DNA of 55,246 bases from an uncultured Muribaculaceae bacterium (GTDB lineage: Bacteria; Bacillota_I; Bacilli_A; RF39; UBA660), in contig CAYJNS010000001.1 of assembly GCA_964371745.1 (NCBI GenBank), forward strand, positions 1 through 55,246, given 5' to 3'. The notes beneath the pieces were generated by a model, which was not told the DNA's origin, searched no databases, and saw only the letters and a program-made list of their open reading frames with translations. This document shows, in pieces, positions 16,351-54,199 of this stretch (position 1 is the stretch's first letter; each line of letters begins with the position of its first letter). The position numbers and the translations under genes were made by a program.

Positions 16351-17850
16351 ATGAAAAATATATTTAAATCTAAAAGAAATATTATGTTATTTATATTAGG
16401 TATACTAATAATAGGATTAGTGGCATTTACTATTACATATGCTTATGTTTCAGCAAATGCATCAGAACCTACTAAAACAGATGTAAATGTTACAGGTGAA
16501 GCATTACATGATTTATCATTTACTAGTGGTGATCCTCTTAATATATCACCTGGATCGCATAATTTAAATGATGCAAGCGGTAACTTAGTATCAACAACTA
16601 CAACTACTGCTACTCTTGTTAATAATGCATTAGAAGAAAGTGTAGTAGCGCAGGCTAACTATAGTTTATATTTACAAATAAATACTAATACATATGAATA
16701 CTCTACAGGTGATAGAAAAATACCCGAAATGATTTTAACTATTACAGATCCAAATGGAGACCTAGTAACAGAAAATGATTATTTTGATTATGTTTCAACA
16801 GCAAACTATGGAGATTATTTAGTACCAAATAATACTGAAGGCTTTGCAATAACAGGTTTTGATATAACTGAAGGAACAATTATTATACCAATAGTAGAAA
16901 ACTATCAAATAGATGCAGCAACAACTACTAATCATGAATGGACTATAACACTATCATTTATGAACTTAGATGAAGATCAATCAATTAATGCAGAAAAAAC
17001 ACTTGATGCAGAAATATTAATTCAAAAAACACCTATACCAACACTAGCATCTACTTTAATAGATACTCATTATCATGATACAGGTCTTTATCAACATACA
17101 ACAGAACTTGCTAATGGAGCAGGCGATGACAACTATAGATATTCAGGAAGTAATTCTATAGTAAATAAAAACTGGGTATGTTTTGGTAGTGATGCAGATG
17201 TTTGTCCAGATGCTAATAAATATAGAATAATAGGCATATTTGATGGAAATGTAAAATTAATTAAACAATTATCTATTGGAGCTATGAAGTGGGATTTAAA
17301 TGATGCGAAATGGGAAGGTGCCAATACTTCTTCTTTAGCAGTGGGTGTTGCAGATGATGCAGATATAAATAAATATTTAAATACAACTTTTTATAATAGT
17401 TTTAGTGATAAATATAAAGAAATTATATATCAGCAAAAACTATACATAGGTTATAATACAAATTTTCAATTATATGTGAAGCAGTATTTTGATTTAGAAA
17501 TTGTTGATCAAACTGTAAATAAATATAATATAGGATTAATGTATATTAGTGATTATGCTTGGAGCACAACAAAAAATTATTGGAAAACCACATTAAATTA
17601 TTATGGTGATGCGACATTAAGAGCTAATAATTGGCTATATTCAGGGATAACAGAATGGACAATTATTCCTAGAGGTTCTCAATTTATGATGCGTATAAAT
17701 TCTAATGGGTATCTTGATGCTTGGAATAGTCATGCTACCAATATTGGATATGCAGTCGGAGTTAGGCCATCATTTTACCTCAAATCAAACACAAGAATTG
17801 AATCTGGAACGGGAACATCTTCTGATCCATTTAGACTAATGTCTTGGTAA
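16351..17850 (+). CDS. Family-A anchored protein, copy A1: shared N-module + DUF6273-like head
   Basis: K-rich N-terminus and a TM helix ending TYAYV. N-module motifs are PEMILTITDPNGDLVT, ITGFDIT, HEWTITLSFMNLDEDQ. The head has YRIIGIF.GNVKLI, INKYLNTTFYNSF and GVRPSFYLK...GTGTSSDPF. Confidence 0.7.
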   Translation: MKNIFKSKRNIMLFILGILIIGLVAFTITYAYVSANASEPTKTDVNVTGEALHDLSFTSGDPLNISPGSHNLNDASGNLVSTTTTTATLVNNALEESVVAQANYSLYLQINTNTYEYSTGDRKIPEMILTITDPNGDLVTENDYFDYVSTANYGDYLVPNNTEGFAITGFDITEGTIIIPIVENYQIDAATTTNHEWTITLSFMNLDEDQSINAEKTLDAEILIQKTPIPTLASTLIDTHYHDTGLYQHTTELANGAGDDNYRYSGSNSIVNKNWVCFGSDADVCPDANKYRIIGIFDGNVKLIKQLSIGAMKWDLNDAKWEGANTSSLAVGVADDADINKYLNTTFYNSFSDKYKEIIYQQKLYIGYNTNFQLYVKQYFDLEIVDQTVNKYNIGLMYISDYAWSTTKNYWKTTLNYYGDATLRANNWLYSGITEWTIIPRGSQFMMRINSNGYLDAWNSHATNIGYAVGVRPSFYLKSNTRIESGTGTSSDPFRLMSW

Positions 17851-17859
17851 ATAACATAA

Positions 17860-18468
<609 letters not shown>

Positions 18469-24640: not shown

Positions 24641-25138
24641 ATGAGAATATCTTTAAAAATTATTAAATATATTATGTTTGCGGTTATGCTGTTTATTTTA
24701 GCTATTGCTATATATTTATTTTATCAAAAACAAACAAATCCTCATGAAATGACTAAAGTATTTGGATATAGTTATGCAACTATATCAACTGATAGTATGG
24801 AGCCTACTATTATGATTGGTGACTTTTTAGTATATAAAAAAGAAAAAATATATTCCATAAATGATATAGTAGTATATATGCATGGTGATATTTCTATTAC
24901 TCATAGAATTGTGGGTATAGAAAATGATTTATATATAACAAAAGGCGATAATAACGATATAGTAGATGAAGTATCTTTAGATAATAGTGATATTATAGGA
25001 AAAGTAATTTATCAAAACAGTGATTTAAGTATATTACTTGTTAGAGCTATTTCCCTATGTGTATTTATATTTGGAATTGTAATTGCGCTTGATATATTAG
25101 TTTCTAAAAAAGTAACAAATGATAAAAAAAGTATCTAA
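24641..25138 (+). CDS. sipW: Signal peptidase I, archaeal/ER (SipW) type
   Basis: FGYSYATISTDSMEPTIMIGDF (Ser), ITHRIV (His), TKGDNNDIVD, GKV, plus N- and C-terminal TM helices. Colinear with B. subtilis SipW as I recall it. Confidence 0.8.
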   Translation: MRISLKIIKYIMFAVMLFILAIAIYLFYQKQTNPHEMTKVFGYSYATISTDSMEPTIMIGDFLVYKKEKIYSINDIVVYMHGDISITHRIVGIENDLYITKGDNNDIVDEVSLDNSDIIGKVIYQNSDLSILLVRAISLCVFIFGIVIALDILVSKKVTNDKKSI

Positions 25139-33244: not shown

Positions 33245-34840
33245 TTAGTTTATTGTATATGGATCATCCCAAGTTCCAGTGCCTGTGAATGCAGTTGTGT
33301 TTTTTAATGATAAAACTGGTCGTACTCCATAAGGAAAGTAATTAGAAGTGGCAGTTATTTGACCGCTTGTTTGTATAAAAAACGTAGTACTAGAACTTAC
33401 ATAAGAATAAGGGGAAATTGTCCAAAATGCATTTCCAGTATATAAATAATATTTTGTATTTGATGTATTAAATAAACCTCCAGCAAAAGCAACTTCATCT
33501 ACTGTTGTTAGTGTAACTGGATTAGTTAAAACGCCATTACCGTGTATTATATCATCAACAGTATATGAATCAATAATTCTTGAACACGTTAGCATTGGAG
33601 TTTTATTTTCTGTATTGAGTCTACCATATGCACCATAATATATATGTGATCCTGTTGTGCTATATACTGATTTATCGTTACAATATATTGTATCAGCAAC
33701 ATCATTTGATTTACCAGCGGCAATAATATTTGTGTTATACCAAGTATCAATGACATTTTTTATGGTGCTATTTATATTTTCTGCATCATATGTGTAACCT
33801 ACATATTTTGCATTGTTGTATATTGTATTAAATGCTGTTGAAGAGTGTATTTGCGTTCCAGCTCCTGCCATTACTGTTTTTGTTGTATTATTTGGTTCTG
33901 TCGTTCCACTATATATTAGTCTTACGCTTCCATCACCATTTATTCTGATAATTCTCCAATAAAATCCTGCCCAATAAACCCAGTTATTATCAACTGCTCC
34001 TCGAAAATAAAAACTTTTACCGTAATTATCAAAACTCATATACATGCCTTCATTTGTTGTTGCCACAGCATTAAAATTAGGTGTAGCTTTATTTATTATT
34101 TTATAAAACCCTTCATTATTATCTATTATTTGATCAGCTAATGAATTTTCAGCATATACGTAATTAATAGTTGATACTAATTTATCTTGACCTAATACTA
34201 ATGATGCATCTAATGTTTTCCCTTCATTTAATGTTTGATCATTTGGTAAATTTACAAATGTTATTTTAACTTTCCAATCTTGAGTAGTACCTGTTGAAGT
34301 ACTTGTTGTTGTTATATTATAATCTTCATATATTGGTATTATGCCATTAAAGTTAGTAATATCAAAACCAGTAATTTTAGAACCTGAATAAGAATCTGTT
34401 ATAGTGGTATATTCAAAACCTTTAAGGGCTGTTATTTCTTTTGCGCTAGGATTTGTTATAGTAAGCATTAACTCTGGGGTATCTTCATTTTGTGAATACT
34501 CAAATGTATTTGAATCTATTTGTAAATATACATTATAATCAAGTGTGGCACTACCTGTTTCGCTAGAGGCTACTAAGTGTGCTGTGGATGTTGTTTCATC
34601 GCTTAATGAACCAGTATTTTCGTTAAAATTATCATATATTGCATAAAGATTAATTGGATCACCTTCAGTAAAAGTAGCATTTTCAGATACTTCTGAAACT
34701 ATATCTAAATCAGTATTAGAAAAACCTCCAATACCCGCGAGGAAGAAGGCATAACCAACTCCAATTATAAGTGTAAGTGATAGTACTACACCAATTATAA
34801 TTATTAAAACTTTATGTTTAGATTCTTTTATTGTATTCAT
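33245..34840 (-). CDS. Family-A anchored protein, copy A2: N-module + DUF6273-like head
   Basis: TM helix ending GYAFF. N-module has TPELMLTITNP, ITGFDITNF, TQDWKVKITFVNLPNDQ. The head has NNWVYWAGFYWRIIRINGDGSVRLIYSG and GVRPVLSLK..GTGTWDDPYTI. Confidence 0.75.
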   Translation of the reverse strand: MNTIKESKHKVLIIIIGVVLSLTLIIGVGYAFFLAGIGGFSNTDLDIVSEVSENATFTEGDPINLYAIYDNFNENTGSLSDETTSTAHLVASSETGSATLDYNVYLQIDSNTFEYSQNEDTPELMLTITNPSAKEITALKGFEYTTITDSYSGSKITGFDITNFNGIIPIYEDYNITTTSTSTGTTQDWKVKITFVNLPNDQTLNEGKTLDASLVLGQDKLVSTINYVYAENSLADQIIDNNEGFYKIINKATPNFNAVATTNEGMYMSFDNYGKSFYFRGAVDNNWVYWAGFYWRIIRINGDGSVRLIYSGTTEPNNTTKTVMAGAGTQIHSSTAFNTIYNNAKYVGYTYDAENINSTIKNVIDTWYNTNIIAAGKSNDVADTIYCNDKSVYSTTGSHIYYGAYGRLNTENKTPMLTCSRIIDSYTVDDIIHGNGVLTNPVTLTTVDEVAFAGGLFNTSNTKYYLYTGNAFWTISPYSYVSSSTTFFIQTSGQITATSNYFPYGVRPVLSLKNTTAFTGTGTWDDPYTIN

Positions 34841-34854
34841 TTCTTACCTTCTTT

Positions 34855-36483
34855 CTAATTAGTGTGTACAAAATATGGATTATTCCATGTACCATTTCCA
34901 CTTGTAAGTGTATCACCTTTTAAATTTATTACTGGTCTTAATCCTTGTTCTACATAAGCTCCTCCGGAATACATTAAATAATGAGTCATCATATCAAGTG
35001 CTGAAGCACTCCAGTCTCCGTTCCCCACTATGTAATAAGTGTAATTTGATGAACTAGTTCCATTTCGAAGCATAGGAGTTATTGTGAAATAATTTAAATT
35101 TGTATGTAAATAAAATTTATTATTAGTTGTAGAAAGTTTACCTCCGGCCATATGCATTTCGTCATAACTTATCATTCCTATAGGATATGTTAGAGTTCCA
35201 GTTCCGTTAATTGTATCGTTTACTGTTAATTTACCAGTTTCATTTTCACAAGTTAATATTGGTTGGTTAGTGTACATTCTATCAACAGCAATTCTTTCTA
35301 AAACCCACCCTGAATTATTGTCGTTTACCGCAGGTCTATTATCTAAACAGAATATTGAATCTTGTAAATAGTTTTCATAATCTATTAATTTTGTATCCCA
35401 ACTCGCATAAGTATCAATTCCTTGATAAAAATTATCGTTAACTACGCTTGTAAAATCAGCTTTTGTACTAACATAAACTCCAAAATCAGTTGAAGCAGTT
35501 CCTATTTGTGTATCGTTTCCTGTTTTAACAACGGATTGAGATTCAGTTGGAGGTATAACTCCGCTATAAATCATTCTAACTGAGTTATCACCATTAACTC
35601 TTATTATTCTCCAGTAGTATCCAGCAAACTCTACCCAGTTATTATCAACCGCACCTCTAAAGTAATAACTTGTTCCGTAATCATCAGGTGCCGCAAACAT
35701 ACCTTCATTTGTAGTGGCTACTACAGCAAAATTAGGAGTGGCTTTTGCTACAATTTCATCTATTCCCCCATTATTAGTAAGAATAGTAGATGCTATTTGA
35801 GAAGTAGTTAAACCTAAGTCTAGTTTATCTTCTCCTAATATTAAGTTTGCTTCAATTGTTTTGCCTTGATTATCTATTTGATTTGCATCTAAATTAACAA
35901 ATGTTAATTTTATAGTCCACTCTTGAGTAGTACCAGTAGTAGTGCTTGTTGTAGATATATTATAATCTTCTTTTACTGCGATAAGTCCAGAAAAGTTAGT
36001 TATATCAAAACCTGTTATAGTTTCTCCAGTATAAGCATCAGTTACAGTTTTATGAGTATGTTCTCTTATCCATGTAACTTCATTACCATCTGGATCTATT
36101 ACTGTAAGAAGAAGTTCTGGTGTATCTTCGTTTTGTGTATATTCAAAAGTATTTGCAGTTATATCTACATAGACCTGATAATCAAGTGTAGCTGTTCCTG
36201 TATCAGTAGACGCTATTAAGTAAGCGCTTGAAATAGTTTCTTCAGTAATAGACCCTGCATATTCATGAAAATTTTCATTATCAGCATATAAAGAAATAGG
36301 GTCTCCACTTTTAAATGATGCTTTTTCAGCAACTTTAGAAACAACTTCTAAATCAGTGTTAGAAAAAGGTCCAATACCTTGAACAAAGAAAGCATAACCT
36401 ATGCCAAATAACAGAGCAACCGCTAAAAAGATACTTACAGTTATTATTAATATTTTATTTTTAGAATTTATTAAGTTTTTCAA
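34855..36483 (-). CDS. Family-A anchored protein, copy A3: N-module + DUF6273-like head
   Basis: Same architecture as A2 (YYWRIIRVNGDNSVRMIYSG; GLRPVINLK..GNGTWNNPY). TTG 36483 with AGGTGA 7 nt upstream is preferred over the track TTG 36531. Lies 14 nt upstream of A2. Confidence 0.75.
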   Translation of the reverse strand: MKNLINSKNKILIITVSIFLAVALLFGIGYAFFVQGIGPFSNTDLEVVSKVAEKASFKSGDPISLYADNENFHEYAGSITEETISSAYLIASTDTGTATLDYQVYVDITANTFEYTQNEDTPELLLTVIDPDGNEVTWIREHTHKTVTDAYTGETITGFDITNFSGLIAVKEDYNISTTSTTTGTTQEWTIKLTFVNLDANQIDNQGKTIEANLILGEDKLDLGLTTSQIASTILTNNGGIDEIVAKATPNFAVVATTNEGMFAAPDDYGTSYYFRGAVDNNWVEFAGYYWRIIRVNGDNSVRMIYSGVIPPTESQSVVKTGNDTQIGTASTDFGVYVSTKADFTSVVNDNFYQGIDTYASWDTKLIDYENYLQDSIFCLDNRPAVNDNNSGWVLERIAVDRMYTNQPILTCENETGKLTVNDTINGTGTLTYPIGMISYDEMHMAGGKLSTTNNKFYLHTNLNYFTITPMLRNGTSSSNYTYYIVGNGDWSASALDMMTHYLMYSGGAYVEQGLRPVINLKGDTLTSGNGTWNNPYFVHTN

Positions 36484-36538
36484 AATATTCTCACCTAGTA
36501 TAAGTTTATCAATTTTTACAACTTTTTTCAATAAATAA

Positions 36539-36567
36539 TTGATAAAAATGTTTTTTTTTGTTAAACT
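36539..36567 (+). promoter_or_regulatory. Candidate promoter of the A4-A7 operon (TTGATA-17-TAAACT) with a T9 tract in the spacer
   Basis: TTGATA at 36539-36544; a 17-nt spacer containing T9 (36551-36559) and TG at the extended -10 position; TAAACT at 36562-36567; AAGAGGA RBS before ATG 36589. Confidence 0.45.
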
Positions 36568-36588: not shown

Positions 36589-38610
36589 ATGTTAGAAAAA
36601 TTTAAAGCAAATAAAAAAAGAAATATTCTTTTAATAATTATATTTTTGTTAATAGTTACATTATCAATTACTTTTGCTTACTATATTACAGGTGTTGGAG
36701 GTAGAGCAGAAACTGAAATAAAAGGTGATACCTTTTTAGCGGAGCAACTAGAGTTTACTTCGGGAACTCCAATAAGTATTGTTTCAAGCGATGATAACTT
36801 TAATCCAACAACTGGTTCTTTATCAGGTACTACAACAGCAACTGTTACACTACATCCTGGTGATGATACTGCATTAATGTCTAGAGGTTATGCTGCATAC
36901 TTTGAAATAACTAATAATGAATATGTTTATACAACAGTTGAAGAAACTCCGGAAATGGTTTTAACAATACTTGATCCAGAGGGTAATGAAGTAACAGATA
37001 TTCCTGGTCTTGAGCATGTAAGTGTATTTGATTTTAAAACAAATACTAATATAACAGGCTTTGATATAACGACTGTTACTGGTAAATATTTTGTTGGTTA
37101 TGATATGTTAGTATTAAATGATTTAGAAAATAGTGTATCTGAAACTTGGGATATAACTATAACATTTGTTAATTTAGATTCAGTACAAAACTCTAATGCA
37201 CAAAGGACCCTTAATTCTAAATTTACGTTTAATGAATATTATGACTTTACTGGTAATTATCAAACATTTACAGCTCCATATACTGGAACTTATAACATTG
37301 AACTTTGGGGAGCTCAAGGTGGAAAACACTTATTTAATGCATTAGATGAAGCTGGATCTGATAACTTTTTTGGAGCATACACTAGTGGCAATATAAACTT
37401 GTTGAAAGGAGATACAGTATACTTGTATGTCGGAGGTAAGGGCGCTGATGCTGTTGTTGGACAGATGGTTTCGGGCGGATATAATGGTGGAGGTCAAGGT
37501 AGTCATGACTTTGGTGATGATGAAGCTGCTGGAGGTGGTGGAGGAGCTACTGATATACGATATTTTACTAATTCTAATCTAGAGTTAGAAGATTTATATT
37601 GGAATTCAGAATTAGGTTTAAATAGCAGAATAATGGTCGCTGCTGGAGCGGGAGGAAGCTCAAGGATACCCGCTAACTTTACTTCCTACGGTGGAGGACT
37701 ATTAGGATATTCTTCAACAGCAAATAAAACTTCACAAACAAACGGATATGAATTTGGTTTGGGACAAAATGCTACATCTGGATGCCCTGGTTCTCAAGGA
37801 TGTGGAGGCGGAGGCGGAGGCTATTATGGTGGATTTTTGACATCTTTATCATCATATAATGGTGGAGGAAGTGGTTCATCTTTCATATCAGGTCATACAG
37901 GATCAGTTGCTATAACAAGTGAAAGTGATCAAAGTGCTAAATCTATACTGCAAGATACAGAAAACTTTCCAGTTAGATATATAGAAGTTGGAAGCAATGG
38001 TAATAGTACAAATGGTTATGGAGGATATAATCAAATAGTTGAATTGCAAGCCTATTTATCAGATGGTACAAACGTTGCATTAAATAAGTCTGTAGAGGGA
38101 AACGTGATAAGCGTTAGTGGAGATAGTAAACCTTTAGAAATGATTACAAATGGCGATATAACTTTAAGCAATTTTTCAAGACATGGGCAGATAATAAATG
38201 TAGATTTGGAGGACGAATATCATCTTGATGAAATTAAGTTGTGGAGATATTTTGATGGAAGGACATATTATGAAACATATGTAAAAGTATATAATGAAGA
38301 TAAAACTAAAAGTAAGTTTTTACATCATTATGAAATAGATGGAACATATGCTGAAACAAGTGATGGTAAAAGTATGAGTTTAGATTCAATTAATACAAAT
38401 TTATGTGTTACGGGAAATATGCATAATGCATGTTCAGTACATTATTCTAATAAAGTATTTACAGATACTAAAATGATAGATGGATCAGGTTATTTGTGGA
38501 CACATACTAAAGAAAGTCAAGAAAATATGAAAACACCGCTAGGATCATATTATGATATAGGTGAGGGTCACAGTGGTAATGGAGCTGCTAAAATAACACA
38601 TATTCCATAG
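36589..38610 (+). CDS. Family-A anchored protein, copy A4: N-module + glycine-rich (ALK-GRD-like) head with discoidin-like insert
   Basis: TM helix ending TFAYY and N-module motifs. Then YTGTYNIELWGAQGG, VYLYVGGKG, GGYNGGG, GGGGGATDIR, SRIMVAAGAGG, GGGGGGYYGG, GGGSGSSFISGHTG, an insert of about 150 aa, then CSVHYSNKVF...GHSGNGAAKITHI. Confidence 0.75.
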   Translation: MLEKFKANKKRNILLIIIFLLIVTLSITFAYYITGVGGRAETEIKGDTFLAEQLEFTSGTPISIVSSDDNFNPTTGSLSGTTTATVTLHPGDDTALMSRGYAAYFEITNNEYVYTTVEETPEMVLTILDPEGNEVTDIPGLEHVSVFDFKTNTNITGFDITTVTGKYFVGYDMLVLNDLENSVSETWDITITFVNLDSVQNSNAQRTLNSKFTFNEYYDFTGNYQTFTAPYTGTYNIELWGAQGGKHLFNALDEAGSDNFFGAYTSGNINLLKGDTVYLYVGGKGADAVVGQMVSGGYNGGGQGSHDFGDDEAAGGGGGATDIRYFTNSNLELEDLYWNSELGLNSRIMVAAGAGGSSRIPANFTSYGGGLLGYSSTANKTSQTNGYEFGLGQNATSGCPGSQGCGGGGGGYYGGFLTSLSSYNGGGSGSSFISGHTGSVAITSESDQSAKSILQDTENFPVRYIEVGSNGNSTNGYGGYNQIVELQAYLSDGTNVALNKSVEGNVISVSGDSKPLEMITNGDITLSNFSRHGQIINVDLEDEYHLDEIKLWRYFDGRTYYETYVKVYNEDKTKSKFLHHYEIDGTYAETSDGKSMSLDSINTNLCVTGNMHNACSVHYSNKVFTDTKMIDGSGYLWTHTKESQENMKTPLGSYYDIGEGHSGNGAAKITHIP

Positions 38611-38622
38611 GAAGGTTTTAAA

Positions 38623-40257
38623 ATGGATTTGAAAAAGAAAAATATTATAATTATAATTGCTTGCTCTTTAGCGTTAATTATCATAGGTGTTTCCTATGCC
38701 TTTTTTGCTATTAATGGTGGAAATAAAGCTGAAACTGATGTGGATGCAACAAGTGATTATAGTTCTAGTTTAAATTTTATTGAGGGAGAGCCTATAAGTT
38801 TATTAATGAATATAGATAATTTTAGTCAAGATCATGGTAGTTTAACAGATGAAACTAATCCTAAAGTTTTTTTAAGAAGTGAAGATGATGGAGTACTAAG
38901 AAGTATTGATTATCAAGTGTATTTTTATATTGAAAAAAACACATTTATTTATACAACTGATACAAAAGAACCAGAAATAATTTTAGAAATAACAAATCCA
39001 GAAGGAAATAAAGTGACAAGTTTAACTGGTTTAGAATATAAAACGGTTACCGATTATAAAACTAATACAGAAATTAGTGGCTTTGATATTACAACTGAAG
39101 AAGGTTATATTAATATATCTGAAAGTTATAATATATCATCAACATCAGCATCAACAGGTACAACACAAGATTGGATTTTTAAGGTAACGTTAATAAATTT
39201 AAATAGTGTTCAAACTGCTAATGAAGGAAGAGAATTTAAATCTAATATAATGATTGGTGAAATAGATTATGATTTTTGTGAAAATGAACATGAATTTATT
39301 TTTGAATATACTGGTGCAGAACAGACTTTAACTGTTCCGGAAACTTGTATGTACAAAGTAGAATTATGGGGAGCACAAGGTGGGAGCGATGGTATAAATA
39401 TTGGCGGTTATGGAGCATATGTTCAAGGAAATATTGTTTTAACTGAAACAGAAAATATATATATTCAAGTAGGACAACAAGGTAAATTAGCTACTGTTGA
39501 TAATGATGCAAACTCTGGAGGCTATAATGGTGGTGGAATTAGTGGTTTATCAGATAGTACACCTCCAAATAATGGAGGAGGAGGAGGTGCTACAGATTTA
39601 AGAATTAGTTCTGGAGCATGGAATAATGCTTTAAGTTTAAGAAGCCGTATAATGGTTGCTGGAGCGGGATCTGGAATTTCAAATTGGTATATTAGAATAC
39701 CAAATGCATCGCCTGCTGGTGGACTTATAGGGTATGCTGGACAATTTATGAGATCTAGTGGAAATTATACATATACAAATGCTATTGGCGGAACCCAAAT
39801 TGCTGGTGGTAATAGAGCTATTGGTGGTTCATGGTCTATTGCGTCTACAAATGGTGGTTTTGGATACGGAGGAAGAGCGCAATCAAGTTATGGTAGTGGT
39901 GGTGGATCCGGCTATTATGGTGGTGGAGGTGGTGAAGCAAACAGTGCTGTTGTTGGTTCTGGAGCTGGCGGTTCATCATACATATCAGGTCATACGGGTT
40001 CTGTAGCAATTACTAGTGAATCTAGCACTACTCCAAAATCAGGATGTACAACTGGAACAAGTAATAATGATTGTTCAGTGCATTATTCAAATAAGGTGTT
40101 TGCTGACACAATTATGATAGATGGAAATGGTTATTCTTGGTCAAATGTAAAAGAAAATCAAGTACAAATGCCTAATCCAGATGGTACACTGAATCCTATA
40201 GGTGTAGGTCATAGTGGAAATGGATATGCTAAAATAACCTCTATAAATTTAAAATAA
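38623..40257 (+). CDS. Family-A anchored protein, copy A5: N-module + glycine-rich head (no insert)
   Basis: Same motif series (YKVELWGAQGG, IYIQVGQQGK, GGGGGATDLR, SRIMVAGAGSG, GGGSGYYGGGGG, GAGGSSYISGHTG, GHSGNGYAKITSI). 12-nt gap and RBS after A4. Confidence 0.75.
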   Translation: MDLKKKNIIIIIACSLALIIIGVSYAFFAINGGNKAETDVDATSDYSSSLNFIEGEPISLLMNIDNFSQDHGSLTDETNPKVFLRSEDDGVLRSIDYQVYFYIEKNTFIYTTDTKEPEIILEITNPEGNKVTSLTGLEYKTVTDYKTNTEISGFDITTEEGYINISESYNISSTSASTGTTQDWIFKVTLINLNSVQTANEGREFKSNIMIGEIDYDFCENEHEFIFEYTGAEQTLTVPETCMYKVELWGAQGGSDGINIGGYGAYVQGNIVLTETENIYIQVGQQGKLATVDNDANSGGYNGGGISGLSDSTPPNNGGGGGATDLRISSGAWNNALSLRSRIMVAGAGSGISNWYIRIPNASPAGGLIGYAGQFMRSSGNYTYTNAIGGTQIAGGNRAIGGSWSIASTNGGFGYGGRAQSSYGSGGGSGYYGGGGGEANSAVVGSGAGGSSYISGHTGSVAITSESSTTPKSGCTTGTSNNDCSVHYSNKVFADTIMIDGNGYSWSNVKENQVQMPNPDGTLNPIGVGHSGNGYAKITSINLK

Positions 40258-40272
40258 AGAAAGGTAAGTATA

Positions 40273-42300
40273 ATGGATAAAGTAAAAAAGAAAAATATAA
40301 TTATTATAGTAATTGCATCACTAATTTTAATATCTAGTGGTATTACTTTTGCTTACCTTATAACTGGTGTAGGCGGCAATGCAGAAACTGACGTAGATGT
40401 TGCAAGTGGTGAAAATGAAAGGTTATCTTTTATACCAGGTGAGCCGCTAAATATAATATCTAATGTAGATAATTTTAGTTTTGAAGATGGTTCTTTAAGT
40501 GATACTACAACTTCAAAAGTAAAATTAGTTAGTGAAGTAGAAGGAGAAACTACTACTCATACATATAATGTATATTTTTCTATAGATGCTAATGAGTTTA
40601 TATATACAACTCCAGAAAAGACACCTGAAATAATATTAAATATAATAGATCCAACAGGTAATGAAATTAAAGATATAACTAATTTTAATTATGTAACAAC
40701 TACTGATAGAATTACTGGAGAAACTATAAAAGGTTTTGATGTAACAGAATTTAATAGTATAATAGATATAGCTCAAGATTATGTAATAAGTACTGATTCA
40801 GTTTTAGAAGGAGTTACTCATGAATGGATTTTTAAATTAACTTATGTAAATTTAGCTACTTCTCAGCTTGATAATGAAGGTAAAGTATTTAATGGTAATG
40901 TTATAATGCAAAATGAAGATAAGAATGTATTTGAGTTTGATTATACAGGTAGTGAACAAGTATTTACTGCCCTTAATACAGGAACTTATAAAGTAGAGTT
41001 ATGGGGAGCTCAGGGCGGAAATAATGATAGTAGATTAGGTGGTAGAGGAGCTTATACAAGTGGGTTAATAGAACTTAATCAAGGAGATACTTTTTTTGTA
41101 CAAGTAGGTGGACAAGGAAGTGTAGCTAATTCAACATATGCAGAAAATTCAATTGGTTATAATGGTGGTGGAGCCGGAGTTCCTTATACTGGACAAATTA
41201 ATGGTACTGGAGGAGGAGGAGCTACTGATATTAGGTTAACAAGCGGAGAATGGAATAATTTTGAATCTTTAAGCAGCAGAATAATGGTAGCTGGAGCAGG
41301 AGCGGGTCTTGCTAACTGGATGAATCCAGTATCTAATGCGGCTCCAGGTGGTGGTTTGATTGGTAACCCAGGAAAACAGTATCAATCAGGTTCTTTATAT
41401 TATAGAAATTCAACAGGTGGGACACAAGTTTCTGGTGGAGTTGAAGGTTATGGAGCTTACGGAGGATATCCAGGTGTATTTGGCATAGGTGGAAACCCAC
41501 AGTCTGGTCATGGATCAGGCGGAGGAGGAGGCTATTATGGAGGAGGAGGAGGAGGCTATAACGGTGGAGTTGTAGGCTCTGGTGCAGGTGGATCATCATT
41601 CATATCAGGGCATACAGGATCAGTTGCTATAGCTAGTGAAATTGATCAAAGTCCAATTGAATTATATCCTTTAGATTTTAATATAAGATTTATAGAAGTT
41701 AGAAGTAATGGTAATAGCGTTGATGGAACTAATAACTATGATCATACTGTAGAAATTCAAGCTTTATTAGAAAATGGAGATAATGTTGCATTAAACAAAA
41801 CAATTATTGGAGAAAATACAATGAGTCAATACCCATTAACAAATATTACAGATGGTATTACTGATACGTTTAATTATGGGGTTCATGGAAATGTTATTAC
41901 GGTTGATTTAGAACAAGAATATCAATTAAGTGAAGTGAAATTATGGAGATATTATAATGATTCAAGAACTTATTATGAAACCTATGTAAAAGTATATAAT
42001 GAAGATAAAACTAAAAGTGTATATTTACATAATTATGAAACAGATGGAACATATGCAGAAACCTCAAGTGGAAAGACAATGTCTTTTAATAGTTGTAATA
42101 CTGGAACTATTTATAATGAATGCTCAGTACATTACTCAAACAAAGTATTTACTGATACTAAAATGATAGATGGAGCAGGTTATTTATGGACACATGTAAA
42201 AGGTGATCAGGAAGAGATGCCAAACCCTACTGGAGAATTAAATGCAATAGGTGTAGGTCATAGTGGAAATGGATATGCTAAGATAACATATATACCTTAG
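40273..42300 (+). CDS. Family-A anchored protein, copy A6: N-module + glycine-rich head with discoidin-like insert
   Basis: Same architecture as A4. The insert has IRFIEVRSNGNS...VEIQALLENG...ITDG...VDLEQEYQLSEVKLWRYY. 15-nt gap after A5. Confidence 0.75.
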   Translation: MDKVKKKNIIIIVIASLILISSGITFAYLITGVGGNAETDVDVASGENERLSFIPGEPLNIISNVDNFSFEDGSLSDTTTSKVKLVSEVEGETTTHTYNVYFSIDANEFIYTTPEKTPEIILNIIDPTGNEIKDITNFNYVTTTDRITGETIKGFDVTEFNSIIDIAQDYVISTDSVLEGVTHEWIFKLTYVNLATSQLDNEGKVFNGNVIMQNEDKNVFEFDYTGSEQVFTALNTGTYKVELWGAQGGNNDSRLGGRGAYTSGLIELNQGDTFFVQVGGQGSVANSTYAENSIGYNGGGAGVPYTGQINGTGGGGATDIRLTSGEWNNFESLSSRIMVAGAGAGLANWMNPVSNAAPGGGLIGNPGKQYQSGSLYYRNSTGGTQVSGGVEGYGAYGGYPGVFGIGGNPQSGHGSGGGGGYYGGGGGGYNGGVVGSGAGGSSFISGHTGSVAIASEIDQSPIELYPLDFNIRFIEVRSNGNSVDGTNNYDHTVEIQALLENGDNVALNKTIIGENTMSQYPLTNITDGITDTFNYGVHGNVITVDLEQEYQLSEVKLWRYYNDSRTYYETYVKVYNEDKTKSVYLHNYETDGTYAETSSGKTMSFNSCNTGTIYNECSVHYSNKVFTDTKMIDGAGYLWTHVKGDQEEMPNPTGELNAIGVGHSGNGYAKITYIP

Positions 42301-42313
42301 GAAAGGAATTATT

Positions 42314-43834
42314 ATGGATAAAGTAAAAAAGAAAAATATAATTATTATAGTAGTAGCATCTTTAATAGTAGTAGCATCCGCTGTTACTTATGCTTTTGTA
42401 TACTCTAGAGTTGGTGGAACTGCTGAAACTGATGTGGACGTAGCAAGTGGAGAAGAAGAAAGATTAACATTTATTGAAGGTGAACCATTATATATTGAAT
42501 CATCTATAGAAAATTTTAGTTCAGAGCATGGAAGTTTAAGTGCAACTACTAAACCTAAAGTTAAATATGTAACCGATGTAGAAGGTGTTGAGACAACAAA
42601 TAACTATGATGTTTATTTAGTAATTGAAGAAAATGGATATATATATACTACTGCTGAACAAAAACCAGAATTAGTACTAACAATTATAGATCCAACTGGA
42701 AATCGGGTAACTAATATAGATGGATTAAATCCAGTTACAACTATAGATTATAAGACAAATACAGAGATTAGTGGTTTTGATATTACCACATTCAATGATG
42801 CGATAAATATTACACAACAATATCCTATATCAACAAATTCAGTTAATACAGGTGAAGTACATGAATGGGAATTTATTATAAATTATATAAATTTAGATTC
42901 TGTGCAATCAGAAAATGAAGGTAAAATTTTAAATGCAAAAATTGTTATGGGAGATTTTAATTGTAATAACGATTATGATATAAGTCAAAGATCTAGCGAT
43001 AGTGTTTATGTAAAAAATTATATATATACAGGAAGTACACAGGAATTAAACATTACAACTCCAGGCCAGTATTTATTACAAACATGGGGTGCAGAAGGTG
43101 GTTATGCTACTTCTGAGACATTTGGTGGAGATGGAGGATATTCGGAAGGCGTTTTAAATATAACTAGTGATACTAATTTATACATAAATGTAGGGAATAA
43201 AGGGTCTAAATTAACTGGTGGTTATAATGGTGGAGGTAGCGCTATAGATGATACTTATGATTCATATGGCGGTGGTGGTGCCTCTGATATTAGAATAACT
43301 ACAAATAGCCTATATTCTAGAGTGATAGTAGCTGGAGGTGGTGGAGGCGCAAATGGAACAAGGTCTAACACCTCAACTAGAGCAGGTGGTTTTGGTGGAG
43401 GATTAGTTGGTGGAACCGCAACTCAATATAGTAGTTATACACCAGCTGGTGGCGGCACTCAAACTGCAGGCGGAGCTCGAGGATATTTAAATAATAGTTA
43501 TTATGGCATCGCTGGAACATTTGGTAATGGAGCAAATGGAACAAGTAATTATTCTACATCAGGCGGAGGCGGAGGTGGAGGCTGGTATGGCGGAGGGAGT
43601 GGTCATCCAGGTTCTACAACGACTTCAATTGGCGGAGGAGGAGGTTCTGGATATGTTTATACTGAAGAAACAGCTATCTCTTACCCTAGTGGAGTTTTAC
43701 TTGATTCAACACACTATTTAACTCAAGCGAATACTTTTGCTGGAAATACAAATTTTGTATCGCCTACTGGAACTATTGAAAATGGACATAATGGTACAGG
43801 ATATGCTCGAGTTACAGCTATGTGTTTTTATTAA
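42314..43834 (+). CDS. Family-A anchored protein, copy A7: N-module + divergent glycine-rich head
   Basis: YLLQTWGAEGG, LYINVGNKG, GGYNGGG, GGGGASDIR, SRVIVAGGGGGA, GGGGGGWYGGG, GGGGGSGYVY, and GHNGTGYARVT. 13-nt gap after A6. Confidence 0.75.
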   Translation: MDKVKKKNIIIIVVASLIVVASAVTYAFVYSRVGGTAETDVDVASGEEERLTFIEGEPLYIESSIENFSSEHGSLSATTKPKVKYVTDVEGVETTNNYDVYLVIEENGYIYTTAEQKPELVLTIIDPTGNRVTNIDGLNPVTTIDYKTNTEISGFDITTFNDAINITQQYPISTNSVNTGEVHEWEFIINYINLDSVQSENEGKILNAKIVMGDFNCNNDYDISQRSSDSVYVKNYIYTGSTQELNITTPGQYLLQTWGAEGGYATSETFGGDGGYSEGVLNITSDTNLYINVGNKGSKLTGGYNGGGSAIDDTYDSYGGGGASDIRITTNSLYSRVIVAGGGGGANGTRSNTSTRAGGFGGGLVGGTATQYSSYTPAGGGTQTAGGARGYLNNSYYGIAGTFGNGANGTSNYSTSGGGGGGGWYGGGSGHPGSTTTSIGGGGGSGYVYTEETAISYPSGVLLDSTHYLTQANTFAGNTNFVSPTGTIENGHNGTGYARVTAMCFY

Positions 43835-43841
43835 AAATTAA

Positions 43842-43867
43842 AACCTAGAAAGTCTAGGTTCTTTTTT
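43842..43867. terminator. Bidirectional terminator between A7 and gerQ
   Basis: aacctaga-aag-tctaggtt stem, T6 downstream and an A-run upstream; sits between convergent genes. Confidence 0.7.
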
Positions 43868-44540: not shown

Positions 44541-44633
44541 TTCAATTTGAAACTTGCTATTAGCAATATTGCTTTTTATATCTTTATAGAAGTATAATTT
44601 ATATAAATAAATATACTTTTTTTGGAGGTAGTA

Positions 44634-45938
44634 ATGAAAGAAAAAGATAAAGTTTTAATAGCTAAACTAATACTAAAAATAACAATTATTATGACCATTG
44701 TAAGTGTATTTATAAAACTATTAGGTTTTGATTTATTTGAAGCAGATTATAGTAATAAAATTCTTTTATGGTTTTCTAATTTAGTGGATAATAATTTTGT
44801 AAGTGGACTTTTTAGTATATTATTAATATTTATTCAATTATATATTATATATAGAATAACTACTAAAAATTCATGTATAAAAACCCATTTGCTCGTTACA
44901 AGTATCTCTACTTTGATTATAGTTTTAACACAAATATATATTTTTGATTATATGTTGACATCCAAATCTAATTTAATTTCGATTCTATATGCCGTTATAT
45001 CTCTAATTAATGTTATTTTGTGTCCTTTTTTAATTGATTATAAAGTTGAATATAAAATAAAATATAAAAGAAAAAATAACGTTGTAAAATTTATGCAAAA
45101 ATTTTGGGTTAGAATTAAGAAACCATTAATCATGTATATGGTAGTGTTATCTTATCAAATTATTGTATTATTTATTAGAAATTTACCATATAATAGTAAA
45201 TATGAAACAATATATAATTTTCTATTAAATTTTGACTACATAATTATTTTATTAATTACTTATTATATTTACTTGAAAAGGAAAGATAATTTAAAAATAA
45301 ATTCTGTTTTTAATTTTTCTTTAGCGCAATTTTTAAATGAAAAACCTGATAAAAAAGATATAAAATATTTTGTAATACAGTTAAAAAATGGGTATGCAGA
45401 TTTTAAAAAACAAAATAAAACTGATAAAATTGTCGTTTTATTATACTTATTATTTTTTATAATACAAGAGTGTTTAACTTTGGGATTGTTAATATACATA
45501 GCTAGCATTAATGATTATATAATTGAATGTTTATTTATATTAACATCTTTCATTATATCCAAGAGCGTTTTTGGAGCGTTTCATTTTAAATCATTTATAT
45601 TATGCTTTTTTGTTTCTAATTTGTCATTTTTTATTTTAAGTAGATTAACTATGAATGTAAATACAACATTTATAATACCTATTTTTTGTGGAATACTATT
45701 AGCTTATATTTCAAGTCGTTTTATTAATAAAAGTGACAGTTCATTATACCGCGGAGTACCTGTGGAAAAATTAGAAAAAATATGTGATGAAAAAAAATTG
45801 AATAAAATGGAGAAAGATATATTAATTGATTATTATTCAAATAGATATAATATTGATAAACTTGCAATTAAATATCATTATTCTGATCGAAGCATACAAA
45901 GAATTAAAACAAAAGCATTAAATAAAATTCAACTATGA
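44634..45938 (+). CDS. Polytopic membrane protein (about 10 TM) with C-terminal sigma-70 region-4-like HTH
   Basis: ATG 44634 after GGAGG. Hydrophobic helices run through about aa 370. The tail LNKMEKDILIDYYSNRYNIDKLAIKYHYSDRSIQRIKTKALNKI fits the region-4 pattern L..rE..i....y......eiA......S.r...r....Al.K. Confidence 0.6.
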   Translation: MKEKDKVLIAKLILKITIIMTIVSVFIKLLGFDLFEADYSNKILLWFSNLVDNNFVSGLFSILLIFIQLYIIYRITTKNSCIKTHLLVTSISTLIIVLTQIYIFDYMLTSKSNLISILYAVISLINVILCPFLIDYKVEYKIKYKRKNNVVKFMQKFWVRIKKPLIMYMVVLSYQIIVLFIRNLPYNSKYETIYNFLLNFDYIIILLITYYIYLKRKDNLKINSVFNFSLAQFLNEKPDKKDIKYFVIQLKNGYADFKKQNKTDKIVVLLYLLFFIIQECLTLGLLIYIASINDYIIECLFILTSFIISKSVFGAFHFKSFILCFFVSNLSFFILSRLTMNVNTTFIIPIFCGILLAYISSRFINKSDSSLYRGVPVEKLEKICDEKKLNKMEKDILIDYYSNRYNIDKLAIKYHYSDRSIQRIKTKALNKIQL

Positions 45939-49590: not shown

Positions 49591-51252
49591 ATGAATGTGA
49601 ACAAAATAGTTTTTACATCAATATTTTTAATTTTTATAGCTGTACTCAGTATTTCTATAGGTTATTCAGCACTTAATTCAACATTAACTATTAGTGGGGA
49701 TGCCACTGTAATAAATAAACAAAATATTAAAATAAATAATATAATATATAAAGATGTTGTCTCAAATGCAAAAGAAATTTATAATTCTAGTTTTTCTGAC
49801 AATGTAGGTAATATTGGAATAAATCTGCCTAATATAGATTCATCAATAACATATACAATAACAATTTTAAATGAAACAGATAGTAATTATTATCTGGGGA
49901 ATGTTGAAGGAATTACCAATACTAATCCTGATATAAGTTATGAAATATTAAATAAAGAAAATATTGTACTAAGTCCTAATACTAGTACAGAATTTGATAT
50001 TAAGTTTACTTATGATGGAGCTTTACCCGATAATAAAGATTTATCTATAAGTTTAAAGTTTAATTTCCATTTAAATTATCGTGAAGAAATATTAAATGGA
50101 GCTTATCCAATTTTAAATAGTGGATTAATACCTGTTACTATAGGTAATGATGGTACTGTAATGGTTGCTGATACAGAAGTTGAGTGGTATAGCTATGAAA
50201 GTAAAGTTTGGGCTAACGCAGTACTTGTAAAAGACCCTTCTGTTACTTATGAAGTTGGAACTATAATACCTATGAATGATATAAAGCAAATGTATGTATG
50301 GATCCCAAGGTATTCTTATGATGCATCTTCAATAGAAAATGATAAAAATGCAATTGATATAACTTTTGTAAATAATGAAACTGTTGCTCACCCTGCATTT
50401 ACATTTGGAACTGATGAACTAAATGGTTTTTGGGTTGGTAAATTTGAAACTGGTTATGAATTTGGTGAAGATATGACAAGTCCAACGTTAGATTACTCTA
50501 TAAAACCTAATGTATATTCTATTGGACCAATAGATATTTACTCGATGTATCAAGGTGTAATTAAAACTAATAATAAGTTTGGATTAGATTCTAGTAGTGA
50601 CTTGCATGTTATTAAAAATACTGAATGGGGAGCAGTTACTTATATTACTCACTCTATATATGGAATATGTACCAGTGATACTAATTGTCCAACAATGACT
50701 AATAATTACTATGCAAATAATTTAAATGATATTATAACAGGGTGTGGTGGAACAACACAACCCACTATTACATCTGGAATTAATGATATTAGTATTTGTC
50801 CTGCTGATTATAGATGGAATACTGTTAATGGATATAAAGCAAGTACTACAAAAAATATAAGTGGTATATACGATTTATCTGCAGGTAAATACGAATATGT
50901 AATGACATTTATGGAAAATCCTTCAGGAGGAGTTTATACTTCGAATAGTAAATTCACGCAAAGTAATCTTCCTGATGAAAAATATTATGATTTATATCCA
51001 GAAAATACTAATAATAAAAATTCTAATGGAGTTATTGGAGATGCTATTCTTGAAATCAAAGACCCAACGGCGACTTATTCATGGAATTATGATTATGCAA
51101 TATTTCACACAACAACATCACCGTTTATTGTAAGAAGTGCTCGTGTAGGAAGTTGGCATTATGCGGGAATGTTTGCTTATTATGGTGTTACAGGTACTTC
51201 CTCTGGTGGTGTTGGAGCTTTTGCTACTCGAAATGTTATAGCTCCAATATAA
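49591..51252 (+). CDS. Family-B anchored protein, copy B1: TasA/camelysin-like N-module + large head
   Basis: TM helix ending IGYSALNSTLTISGDATV. The roughly 160-aa N-module is shared with 53096. The head has WANAVLV, MYVWIPRYSY, HPAFTFG...GFWVGKFE, WGAVTYITHS, and ISGIYDLSAGKYEYV. Confidence 0.65.
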   Translation: MNVNKIVFTSIFLIFIAVLSISIGYSALNSTLTISGDATVINKQNIKINNIIYKDVVSNAKEIYNSSFSDNVGNIGINLPNIDSSITYTITILNETDSNYYLGNVEGITNTNPDISYEILNKENIVLSPNTSTEFDIKFTYDGALPDNKDLSISLKFNFHLNYREEILNGAYPILNSGLIPVTIGNDGTVMVADTEVEWYSYESKVWANAVLVKDPSVTYEVGTIIPMNDIKQMYVWIPRYSYDASSIENDKNAIDITFVNNETVAHPAFTFGTDELNGFWVGKFETGYEFGEDMTSPTLDYSIKPNVYSIGPIDIYSMYQGVIKTNNKFGLDSSSDLHVIKNTEWGAVTYITHSIYGICTSDTNCPTMTNNYYANNLNDIITGCGGTTQPTITSGINDISICPADYRWNTVNGYKASTTKNISGIYDLSAGKYEYVMTFMENPSGGVYTSNSKFTQSNLPDEKYYDLYPENTNNKNSNGVIGDAILEIKDPTATYSWNYDYAIFHTTTSPFIVRSARVGSWHYAGMFAYYGVTGTSSGGVGAFATRNVIAPI

Positions 51253-51287
51253 ATAAAATCTGGAAAATGAAAGGATCTTTGTAAAAA

Positions 51288-53042: not shown

Positions 53043-53095
53043 TAATATTTTGATATTTCTTTTGTTAAAGTGATTAGGTAAGAAAGGTTGTTATA

Positions 53096-54163
53096 ATGAA
53101 AAAAGTAATGAATACTAAATTAGTAATTACAATTGTAATATTTACTTCTATTTTATTTATGACAATAGGTTATTCAGCATTAAACGTAAATTTAACAATA
53201 AGTGGTGAAGCTAGCGTTATTCCTCAATCTTTTATAGAAGTCACTAATATATCTATTAAAAGTCAAGAAAATGGTGGATTAGAAAATTATAATTCAGCTT
53301 TTATTGGAAATCAATCAAATATTCATGTTAGTTTACCAAATCAAAATTCAACTATTACTTATGAAATAGAAGTAACAAATGATACAATTAATAATTATTA
53401 CTTAAATAATATAGAAGAGTTATCAACAAATAATATAAATATTAAGTATGAAATAATAAATAAAGAATCAATATTTATTGCGCCAAATAGTGTTCAAGTC
53501 ATAGAAATAAAATTTTATTACGATTCTGTAATAACTTCTAATGTAGATTTATCATTATCACTTAGATATGATTTTATATCTGTACCATTTGAAAATTTAG
53601 AATATATAGTAAGTACAGGAACTCAATATATAGATACAGGGATTATGAATACAGGAGATTATACCTTTGAAAGTGAATATTGGTTTGAAACGAATTTAGA
53701 AAAAGATGGAGTATGGCTTTTCAGTGGACGTAAAACAACTGAGTACACACTAGGTTTTTACATGTTAAACGGCGGTACTATAATTAATAGTTATGGTGGA
53801 ACAACTTTAACATATTCTGGTAAATATTTTCCTATAGAAACTTGGCATGAATTATATTATTCACGTACTAAAGCATCTATAAATGGATTTAACGTTCCAG
53901 TTATAGCTCAAAAATTAGTGCCTGAGGAACACGGTGCATCTATATTACTTGGTGCCAATATTGTAAACTGGGATGGAGGAATAGATACAAGATATTTTAT
54001 AGGAAGAATACAATATTTTAAAATTACAGATGTTACGACTGGCAATTTAATTAGAAATTTTGTACCTGTTAAATTAAATGATACTAATGAAGTTTTATAC
54101 TGGGATACAGTAGAGAAACAATATTATAGTAATATAGGAACTGGAGCATTTACTTCACCTTAA
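53096..54163 (+). CDS. Family-B anchored protein, copy B2: same N-module + LamG/jelly-roll-like head
   Basis: MTIGYSALNVNLTISGEASV. N-module is colinear with B1 (LPN..S.ITY.I.V.N.T.N.YYL.N, I.YEI.NKE, LS.SL...F). The head begins LEYIVSTGTQYIDTG and ends YYSNIGTGAFT. Confidence 0.65.
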   Translation: MKKVMNTKLVITIVIFTSILFMTIGYSALNVNLTISGEASVIPQSFIEVTNISIKSQENGGLENYNSAFIGNQSNIHVSLPNQNSTITYEIEVTNDTINNYYLNNIEELSTNNINIKYEIINKESIFIAPNSVQVIEIKFYYDSVITSNVDLSLSLRYDFISVPFENLEYIVSTGTQYIDTGIMNTGDYTFESEYWFETNLEKDGVWLFSGRKTTEYTLGFYMLNGGTIINSYGGTTLTYSGKYFPIETWHELYYSRTKASINGFNVPVIAQKLVPEEHGASILLGANIVNWDGGIDTRYFIGRIQYFKITDVTTGNLIRNFVPVKLNDTNEVLYWDTVEKQYYSNIGTGAFTSP

Positions 54164-54199
54164 TAAATTGTTATAATTAAATAGAAAAGAGGCATTTAT

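Follow-up and report, generated by a model that had tools for sequence, protein, structure and literature searches.

Tandem genes for ALK/LTK-type glycine-rich heads on a common stalk in an uncultured member of the Bacillota

The receptors ALK and LTK carry an extracellular, ligand-binding glycine-rich domain (GRD; PDB 7LRZ, 7NX1, 7N00 and 7LIR), which combines an ordered series of glycine motifs with strands of a tumour necrosis factor (TNF)-like fold and is of medical importance. Among phages, a polyglycine-II scaffold with variable loops at the distal receptor-binding tip is the design shared by Pam3 gp24 (7YFW), Klebsiella TFP_Y and S16 gp38 (6F45; a T-even adhesin). In the gp24 fibre of cyanophage Pam3, the tip is TNF-like and glycine-rich; it is reported to be similar in structure to C. 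elegans ALK and to recognise the host (PMC9608196), and in the Klebsiella phage protein TFP_Y, which has the same fibre design, adaptive mutations restoring infection map to the glycine-rich domain (PMC12671077). Here we analyse four tandem genes, A4 to A7, located on positions 1 to 55,246 of contig CAYJNS010000001.1 (NCBI GenBank assembly GCA_964371745.1). This whole stretch of 55,246 nucleotides, referred to below as the window, belongs to the metagenome-assembled genome (MAG) of a spore-forming low-GC member of the Bacillota. The same domain that binds ligands in ALK and LTK forms here the distal head of apparently exported bacterial proteins. The heads of A4-A7 are true homologues of the ALK/LTK GRD, an assignment to the family that is firm, and the locus adds a new member to the known Pfam family PF12810, which is functionally unstudied.

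Glycine-rich heads of the ALK/LTK type

All four heads match the Pfam model PF12810 (ALK_LTK_GRD, 243 profile positions) far above its gathering cut-off of 24.5 bits. The scores are 135.6 bits for A4 (E 3.7e-39, residues 232-477), 148.1 bits for A5 (E 5.8e-43, residues 242-540, profile positions 8-242), 149.0 bits for A6 (E 3e-43) and 156.8 bits for A7 (E 1.3e-45, residues 249-502), and the matches begin at profile positions 4-8 and end at positions 204-242. An initial annotation of the window, made from the sequence without database searches, had placed the heads in this family, and at 136-157 bits the profile search agrees with it. The similarity is not a product of amino acid composition. 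A hidden Markov model (HMM) for which other genomes and viral contigs had supplied all 49 GRD segments scored the real heads at 168-266 bits, whereas 200 composition-preserving shuffles of each head never rose above -6.5 bits; together with the PF12810 scores, this control rules out a low-complexity artefact.

The four proteins can be aligned end to end, and in the multiple alignment the series of eight glycine-rich motifs described in the initial annotation is colinear. As literal regular expressions, motifs 1 and 8 are found in all four proteins and motifs 2-7 in two or three proteins each. Paralogues without the literal motif have a near-match at the same alignment columns, so the patterns should be taken as consensus strings rather than exact ones. 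The order and the presence of the series were described correctly. A cysteine-containing segment, CSVHYSNKVF, is common to A4-A6 and absent from A7, the most diverged of the four heads.

The relationship to ALK and LTK is also detected among 177,635 distinct PDB sequences when profiles are used. A small profile made from the four heads found ALK and LTK chains (E 5e-5 to 5e-4) as its sole matches below E 0.01, and a large profile made from 85 bacterial sequences found ALK chains only, at E 1e-9 to 5e-8. Profiles were required for this result, as a single-sequence phmmer search of the PDB with A7 gave no match. When the HMMs are aligned with human ALK, LTK and C. elegans SCD-2, the motifs are paired in order: WGAxGG with YGAAGG, LYIxVG with LYILVGQQGE, GGGGATD with GGGGGGGAT, SRIxVAGGGG with LIIAAGGGG, GGGGGYYGG with GGGGGGYIGG, and GGSSYIS with GVSFIS. 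This is the order in human ALK that the initial annotation had given. Single HMM alignments extend over query positions 9-219 against ALK 53-289, and over query positions 331-546 against ALK 48-285. The last motif, GH.G.G.A.IT, lies beyond the PDB alignments and inside the Pfam match; in A5 and A7, this match extends as far as position 242 of the 243 in the profile.

In an AlphaFold2 model of A6, the GRD has a predicted local distance difference test score (pLDDT) above 90. When this model was compared with the PDB using Foldseek, the top 21 matches were all ALK/LTK GRD structures (E 9e-6 to 1e-3, probability 1.0), so the structural match expected in the initial annotation is found, albeit with a loose superposition that is considered below. 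The DSSP assignment of the A6 model gives the glycine stretches only as 'other'. A predicted fold composed of a TNF-like beta-sandwich and a glycine-rich subdomain is well supported for the heads, although not proven.

The frequency of the GRD was understated in the initial annotation, as thousands of bacterial and phage proteins carry this domain. At least 3,332 homologues were obtained by a word-indexed search, with PF12810 present in 120 of the 120 best listed; they originate from Bacilli, Mycoplasmatota and Oscillospiraceae MAGs, and some of them are already labelled by NCBI as "glycine rich domain-containing protein". In a scan of GTDB genomes, the GRD was found in Bacilli, Bacteroidales, Muribaculaceae, Flavobacteriales, Saccharibacteria, Nomurabacteria, Myxococcota and others. 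Two or more GRD open reading frames (ORFs) are present in 16 of 79 genome loci and in 26 of 77 viral loci. Five tandem GRD genes occur in a cultured member of the Bacteroidota, Segatella paludivivens DSM 17968 (locus L017, 642-12451, NZ_KB890640.1; PF12810 E 2e-39 to 5e-19 in the three that were scanned), which makes this strain a possible experimental system. Elsewhere the GRD is fused to surface modules, including the prepilin N_methyl segment, InlB B-repeats, Laminin_G_3 and a camelysin-like region. The combination of PF07963 (N_methyl) with PF12810 occurs in homologues such as P0037; its N_methyl motif is absent from A4-A7, and a type IV pilin was rejected for them.

Probable binding role of the heads, and their phage counterparts

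The function of A4-A7 is probably extracellular binding by exported proteins, adhesin- or lectin-like in kind and possibly directed to glycans. In the proposed mechanism, the four co-transcribed proteins would be exported through the Sec pathway, with the N-terminal lysine-rich segment and the hydrophobic helix ending in [ST][FY]A[YF] acting as a cleavable signal peptide or as a signal anchor. A beta-sandwich stalk of ~180 residues would then carry the distal head outward, where the GRD would serve as the binding module. We infer the extracellular location from the N-terminal helix of all seven stalk proteins encoded in the window (A4-A7 and three further proteins, A1-A3), and from the surface modules to which both the GRD and the stalk are fused elsewhere. 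A binding role is suggested by the tail-module context of homologues, by matches in the PHROG and BFVD databases, by the solved TNF-like and glycine-rich phage tips, and by ligand binding in ALK and LTK.

The sole direct hint to the kind of ligand is a CBM32-like module inside two of the heads. Between the ISGHTGSVAI strand and the C-terminal GRD strands, A4 and A6 have ~130-145 extra residues that are 62 % identical between the two proteins, and phmmer over the collected homologue sequences found the same insert in five further GRD proteins. A profile of the seven inserts matched carbohydrate-binding structures, namely C. perfringens 4a3z (E 1.7e-6), AlyQ 7d29 (E 3.7e-5) and chitosanase modules (E 0.011). 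Among Pfam models, PF22633 was found in all seven inserts (best E 2e-5) and PF00754 in six of the seven (best E 4e-6). Judging from these profile matches, the insert is a putative domain-in-domain insertion of a CBM32-like sugar-binding module, which suggests that at least A4 and A6 bind glycans.

Counterparts of the heads are present in viruses. A scan of IMG/VR returned 78 loci with heads 34-47 % identical over the full length, the best of them at 42-45 %. The A4-A7 heads match phrog_1589, phrog_5811 and phrog_7388 at E 1e-25 to 1e-36; these families, whose listed function is unknown, are the same ones that are matched by the GRD proteins of a prophage-like contig, L081. This contig encodes two tandem GRD proteins of 891 and 816 aa (PF12810 E 3e-139 and 6e-98). 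Their genes immediately follow those for tail-fibre and tail proteins and precede those for an endolysin and an integrase, in the usual place of receptor-binding proteins. The A6 model matched 23 viral proteins in BFVD at E <= 1e-3, one of which is annotated as a virion structural protein. A tblastn search of GenBank phages with an L081 protein gave one weak match to an unannotated record, and the same search with the A5 head gave no match, probably as an effect of the low-complexity filter. Many of the BFVD matches (A0A8S5SE10, A0A385EC16, A0A1D7SXD8 and others) bear the automatic UniProt name 'receptor protein-tyrosine kinase', and other entries are named 'Glycine-rich domain-containing protein'; the former name is likely an over-annotation of phage proteins, presumably carried over from ALK/LTK via the GRD signature.

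The many viral contigs with full-length heads, the tail-module position in L081 and the PHROG matches would also be expected if A4-A7 had come from phage tail-fibre (receptor-binding) genes by domestication or decay, or if they belonged to a tailocin-like particle. The surroundings of the cluster, however, are chromosomal (dnaB, rlmH, ung, lemA, a murJ/spoVB-like gene, a metallo-beta-lactamase (MBL) hydrolase gene, the spore coat gene gerQ, an agrB-like gene, murC, parAB, secY and others), and no phage gene was found among the cluster neighbours in the annotation of the flanking window genes. Every protein begins with a signal or membrane helix and none has a baseplate-docking domain. Moreover, A2 and A3 have no PHROG match, and the genomic context seen for the stalk family consists of housekeeping and surface-protein genes. 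Judged by their housekeeping and sporulation neighbours and by their N-termini, A4-A7 do not belong to a tail fibre, and we give hardly any credence to a phage origin of this kind.

The neighbourhood could also bring to mind the spore. Sporulation genes are present, gerQ is convergent with the cluster and immediately downstream of it, and YqfD is encoded beside a related GRD gene in another locus (L160). Spore surfaces commonly contain glycine-rich proteins, and TasA was initially described in association with the spore. A4-A7 might be glycine-rich proteins with a structural part in the cell envelope or at the spore surface, for example in an exosporium or coat appendage, and with no specific ligand. 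Such a role is very unlikely, since the heads have a conserved globular fold with ordered motifs rather than the repetitive low-complexity sequence of a coat protein, phages, Bacteroidota that do not sporulate and bacteria of the candidate phyla radiation (CPR; e.g. Saccharibacteria and Nomurabacteria) also have homologues, and the nested CBM32-like module points to specific binding.

For the preferred function in extracellular binding, the divergence of the four copies is of interest, because the initial annotation had suggested a ligand-binding repertoire for them. A4-A7 are old paralogues that have diverged throughout. The N-terminal parts of the four GRDs are 42-55 % identical to one another. 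The C-terminal parts of A4-A6 share 61-69 % identity, and that of A7 shares 27-28 % with them. Variation within the heads falls in the loops, between glycine motifs and strands that are conserved. Crude NG86 estimates of dN/dS are 0.32-0.88 for the stalk and 0.32-0.62 for the head at dS values of 0.7-1.4, which are close to saturation. Hypervariability specific to the heads is not seen in the identities or in dN/dS, and the crude estimates show no sign of positive selection on the heads. A repertoire may still be inferred from the four copies, and a division of labour among two CBM32-bearing heads, one plain head and one divergent head is plausible.

Several observations weigh against the preferred reading: i) the superposition of the A6 model on ALK/LTK structures is loose, with TM scores normalised to the target of 0.25-0.39 and root-mean-square deviations of 7-13 Å; ii) divergence is no greater in the heads (42-55 % identity) than in the stalks (36-56 %), which makes a diversifying repertoire less probable; iii) the A4 and A6 copies of the CBM32-like insert, when scored singly, reach 16.2 and 15.3 bits, under the Pfam cut-off of 27.8; iv) Pam3 gp24 (7yfw) does not match the profile of 85 bacterial GRD sequences; and v) a full-text literature search found no study of a cellular bacterial GRD member, and none with a demonstrated ligand or binding. 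The last point is consistent with the remark in the initial annotation that bacterial members of the family are functionally uncharacterised. As gp24 is undetected by sequence, the phage analogy rests on the PHROG and IMG/VR homologues, of unknown function, and on the one prophage context inspected; the link between gp24 and the bacterial GRD is a structural analogy or a very remote homology.

The stalk module and a possible relation to TasA

The signal and stalk module (residues 1-215) of A4-A7 is also found in A1, A2 and A3, all of which lack the GRD, and all seven proteins begin with a lysine-rich segment and a hydrophobic helix. Among A4-A7, the stalks are 36-56 % identical over residues 31-215. 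In an AlphaFold model of A7 obtained with a deeper alignment, residues 2-33 form a helix and residues 50-215 a beta-sandwich with pLDDT above 95. No Pfam or NCBIfam model covers the stalk, and Foldseek found no significant neighbour of the stalk model in the PDB (best E 7e-3, an unrelated Bdellovibrio protein).

An exhaustive search with the stalk profile identified 1,053 clusters at 50 % identity, compared with 7 proteins only when a word index was used. In all of the 150 best matches listed, the module is N-terminal, on proteins of 200-1,250 aa. Most heads of 81 sampled stalk proteins are unassigned, and the rest are fn3, DUF6273, DUF285, BspA-type leucine-rich repeat and Ig-like domains. 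The module, which comprises an export segment and the stalk, is undescribed and carries many types of heads. A2 and A3 have a head in which the motifs W..F.G.YWRIIR.NGD.SVR.IY and RPV..LK...GNGTW..PY occur, and a similar head seems to be the most frequent type in the family, judging from the family consensus; the A2 head matches DUF6273 at E 0.0019 and 18.5 bits, under the cut-off of 23.5 bits. The longest ORF of A3 starts at a TTG codon at 36531 that has no ribosome-binding site. Its true start is probably the TTG at 36483, 16 codons further in, since GGTGAG is found 6 nt before it and the resulting N-terminus agrees with those of the paralogues; this start leaves a divergent intergenic region of 105 nt. 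A sortase-anchored wall protein was ruled out for the family members studied here, as they have no LPXTG motif. A stand-alone stalk protein of 197 aa with no head, P0132 (L158 8001-8594; ERZ15610132 NODE_328), is encoded in a cell-division and cell-wall cluster, where mraY and ftsW flank its gene and a penicillin-binding protein gene lies upstream; this is an odd position for an adhesin stalk.

The N-terminal layout of A1-A7 is like that of TasA and camelysin (PF12389), in which a lysine-rich segment is followed by a hydrophobic helix, then by a T-[FY]-A-[YF]-F-like site and a beta-sandwich. The motif [ST][FY]A[YF]F, which ends the hydrophobic helix and is conserved across the ~1,050 clusters of the stalk family, is reminiscent of the SipW-dependent signal peptides of TasA and camelysin. 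A signal peptidase I of the archaeal/ER type (SipW class) is encoded in the window between an ATP-grasp-like gene and rplI/dnaB; it exceeds the cut-off of TIGR02228 (Table 1) and matches the Bacillus SipW model at E 4.8e-13, under the cut-off of that model. This peptidase is a candidate processing enzyme for the [ST][FY]A[YF][FYLV] site of the stalk family. In addition, the stalk profile aligns with residues 7-197 of the protein P0116 (hhalign probability 94.8 %, E 5e-8), and this region of P0116 passes the PF12389 model Peptidase_M73/camelysin with 25.7 bits against a cut-off of 22.5.

These similarities, together with the TasA fibre 8aur among the weak Foldseek matches of the stalk (E 0.057, probability 0.63), would fit A1-A7 being subunits or tip proteins of a TasA/camelysin-like fibre. 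The SipW-class peptidase would cut after the alanine of [ST][FY]A and before [YF], the stalks would polymerise, e.g. by donor-strand exchange, and the heads would be displayed. On the other hand, no protein of the window matched PF12389 or TIGR04088 at E up to 0.1, TIGR04088 being found in relatives only, at 9.4-9.7 bits against a cut-off of 19. TasA itself, represented by an approximate query sequence, aligned with the stalk profile over the signal region alone (E 0.064). The stalk profile found no TasA or CalY chain in the PDB, and the best Foldseek match of the stalk is the Bdellovibrio protein mentioned above. The peptidase gene lies 8 kb from the closest paralogue, and none was seen next to the stalk-family relatives in the five loci checked. 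To our knowledge, TasA-family proteins normally lack large C-terminal heads, unlike the stalk family. A TasA-like fibre is a minority hypothesis that we regard as possible but doubtful, and it would refine the reading of A4-A7 as exported binding proteins rather than replace it. A broader scheme is quite improbable, in which A1-A7 would be interchangeable subunits of a SipW-processed, TasA-like modular adhesive fibre of uncultured gut Bacilli, with GRD, GRD and CBM32, DUF6273-like and other heads, and the GRD would be an ancient prokaryotic or phage receptor-binding fold ancestral to the metazoan ALK/LTK domain.

Operon, surroundings and relation to described systems

A4-A7 are best read as one operon, because they are separated by spacers of 12-15 nt, each gene is preceded by its own Shine-Dalgarno sequence, one promoter-like site lies upstream of A4 and one terminator-like hairpin lies at the end, between A7 and the convergent gerQ-like gene (Table 1). 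The Shine-Dalgarno sequence AAGAGGA is found between the promoter-like site and A4. The promoter-like site is a consensus match only, in a region with 72 such matches against 70.6 expected, i.e. with no enrichment. A single operon with a shared stalk had been proposed in the initial annotation, and the spacing, the promoter-like site, the terminator and the stalk identity all bear it out.

The G+C content is 33 % inside the cluster and 23-28 % around it. An Rfam scan found no RNA genes. The window proteins that were looked up, DnaB and MurC among them, are singletons at 90 % identity, and the organism is thus otherwise unsampled. Elsewhere in the window, the ORF at 17923-18336 (+) encodes 137 aa, and its match to the adenylosuccinate synthetase model (416 positions) is restricted to positions 1-133; it resembles a purA that has been truncated or frameshifted. 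The ORF at 44622-45938 (+) encodes a polytopic membrane protein of 438 aa that is AgrB-like at residues 263-395 (E 5e-11). Its C-terminal tail, …DILIDYYSNRYNIDKLAIKYHYSDRSIQRIKTKALNKIQL, has the look of sigma-70 region 4 or of a helix-turn-helix, which would be an unusual fusion. For four consecutive ORFs at 49591-54880 (+), which encode 553, 584, 355 and 226 aa, no match was found in Pfam and none that is meaningful in NCBIfam.

Table 1. Positions of the A4-A7 cluster, its protein regions and related features in the window
Feature	Position	Strand	Residues or length	Remarks and basis
A4	36589..38610	+	673 aa	ORF calling
A5	38623..40257	+	544 aa	ORF calling
A6	40273..42300	+	675 aa	ORF calling
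A7	42314..43834	+	506 aa	ORF calling
A4 signal/membrane helix and stalk	36589-37233	+	aa 1-215	
A5 signal/membrane helix and stalk	38623-39267	+	aa 1-215	
A6 signal/membrane helix and stalk	40273-40917	+	aa 1-215	
A7 signal/membrane helix and stalk	42314-42958	+	aa 1-215	
A4 GRD, N-terminal part	37240-38019	+	aa ~218-477	
A4 CBM32-like insert	38020-38403	+	aa ~478-605	alignment, profile matches
A4 GRD, C-terminal strands	38404-38607	+	aa ~606-673	
A5 GRD head	39289-40254	+	aa ~223-544	uninterrupted
A6 GRD, N-terminal part	40924-41670	+	aa ~218-466	
A6 CBM32-like insert	41671-42105	+	aa ~467-611	alignment, profile matches to CBM32 structures
A6 GRD, C-terminal strands	42106-42297	+	aa ~612-675	
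A7 GRD head	43010-43831	+	aa ~233-506	most diverged of the four
Promoter-like site	36539..36567	+		TTGATA, 17 nt spacer, TAAACT, with TG; upstream of A4; consensus scan
Terminator-like hairpin, bidirectional	43840..43862	both	8-10 bp stem	followed by T run; between A7 and convergent gerQ-like gene
A1	16351..17850	+	499 aa	stalk HMM E 1.3e-50; head without Pfam or NCBIfam match; 15 kb upstream of main cluster
A2	33245..34840	-		stalk HMM E 8.5e-100; different head, weakly DUF6273-like
A3	34855..36531	-		divergent paralogue; stalk HMM E 1e-99; non-GRD head without Pfam match
Signal peptidase I, archaeal/ER type (SipW class)	24641..25138	+		TIGR02228 60.9 bits (cut-off 51.85), E 1.3e-16

The domain family is already present in Pfam and named by NCBI, and no textbook view is altered by the locus. 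The newer points are the undescribed stalk with its possible connection to SipW and camelysin, the nested CBM32-like module, and the location of phage homologues in a tail module. Taken with these phage homologues, the locus supports the view that the GRD is a fold of general use for recognition outside the cell, with a reservoir in prokaryotes and viruses. It also draws attention to a class of surface proteins that is widespread among gut Bacilli, Bacteroidota and CPR bacteria and is unstudied. The bacterial heads also offer small, kinase-free, single-domain versions of the GRD for structural and binding studies.

Compared with the phage systems, the phage and prophage GRD proteins carry a PF12810 head as A4-A7 do, often in two tandem paralogues, but they are located in tail modules and do not have the signal and stalk module. 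Described phage fibres are trimers with dedicated chaperones and with N-terminal helices that dock to the baseplate; no such feature was seen in A4-A7. The tip proteins Pam3 gp24, TFP_Y and S16 gp38 do not match the bacterial GRD profile by sequence and are not among the top 50 Foldseek PDB matches of the A6 model. ALK and LTK are the nearest described relatives, at an identity of ~20 % and a TM score of 0.25-0.39. Unlike these receptors, A4-A7 have no Pfam match to kinase, EGF-like, MAM or LDLa domains, and ALKAL is an impossible ligand for the bacterial heads. The bacterial GRD stands at the C-terminal end of the protein, on a chain that would be N-terminally anchored or secreted, and in A4 and A6 it differs further from the metazoan domain by the nested CBM32-like insert. 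These inserts share with CBM32/F5_F8 type C modules (4A3Z and AlyQ 7D29), at the profile level, the pattern ITDG...VDL...Y.L..(I/V).LW; the putative module of A4 and A6, however, is nested inside the GRD and not appended to a glycoside hydrolase.

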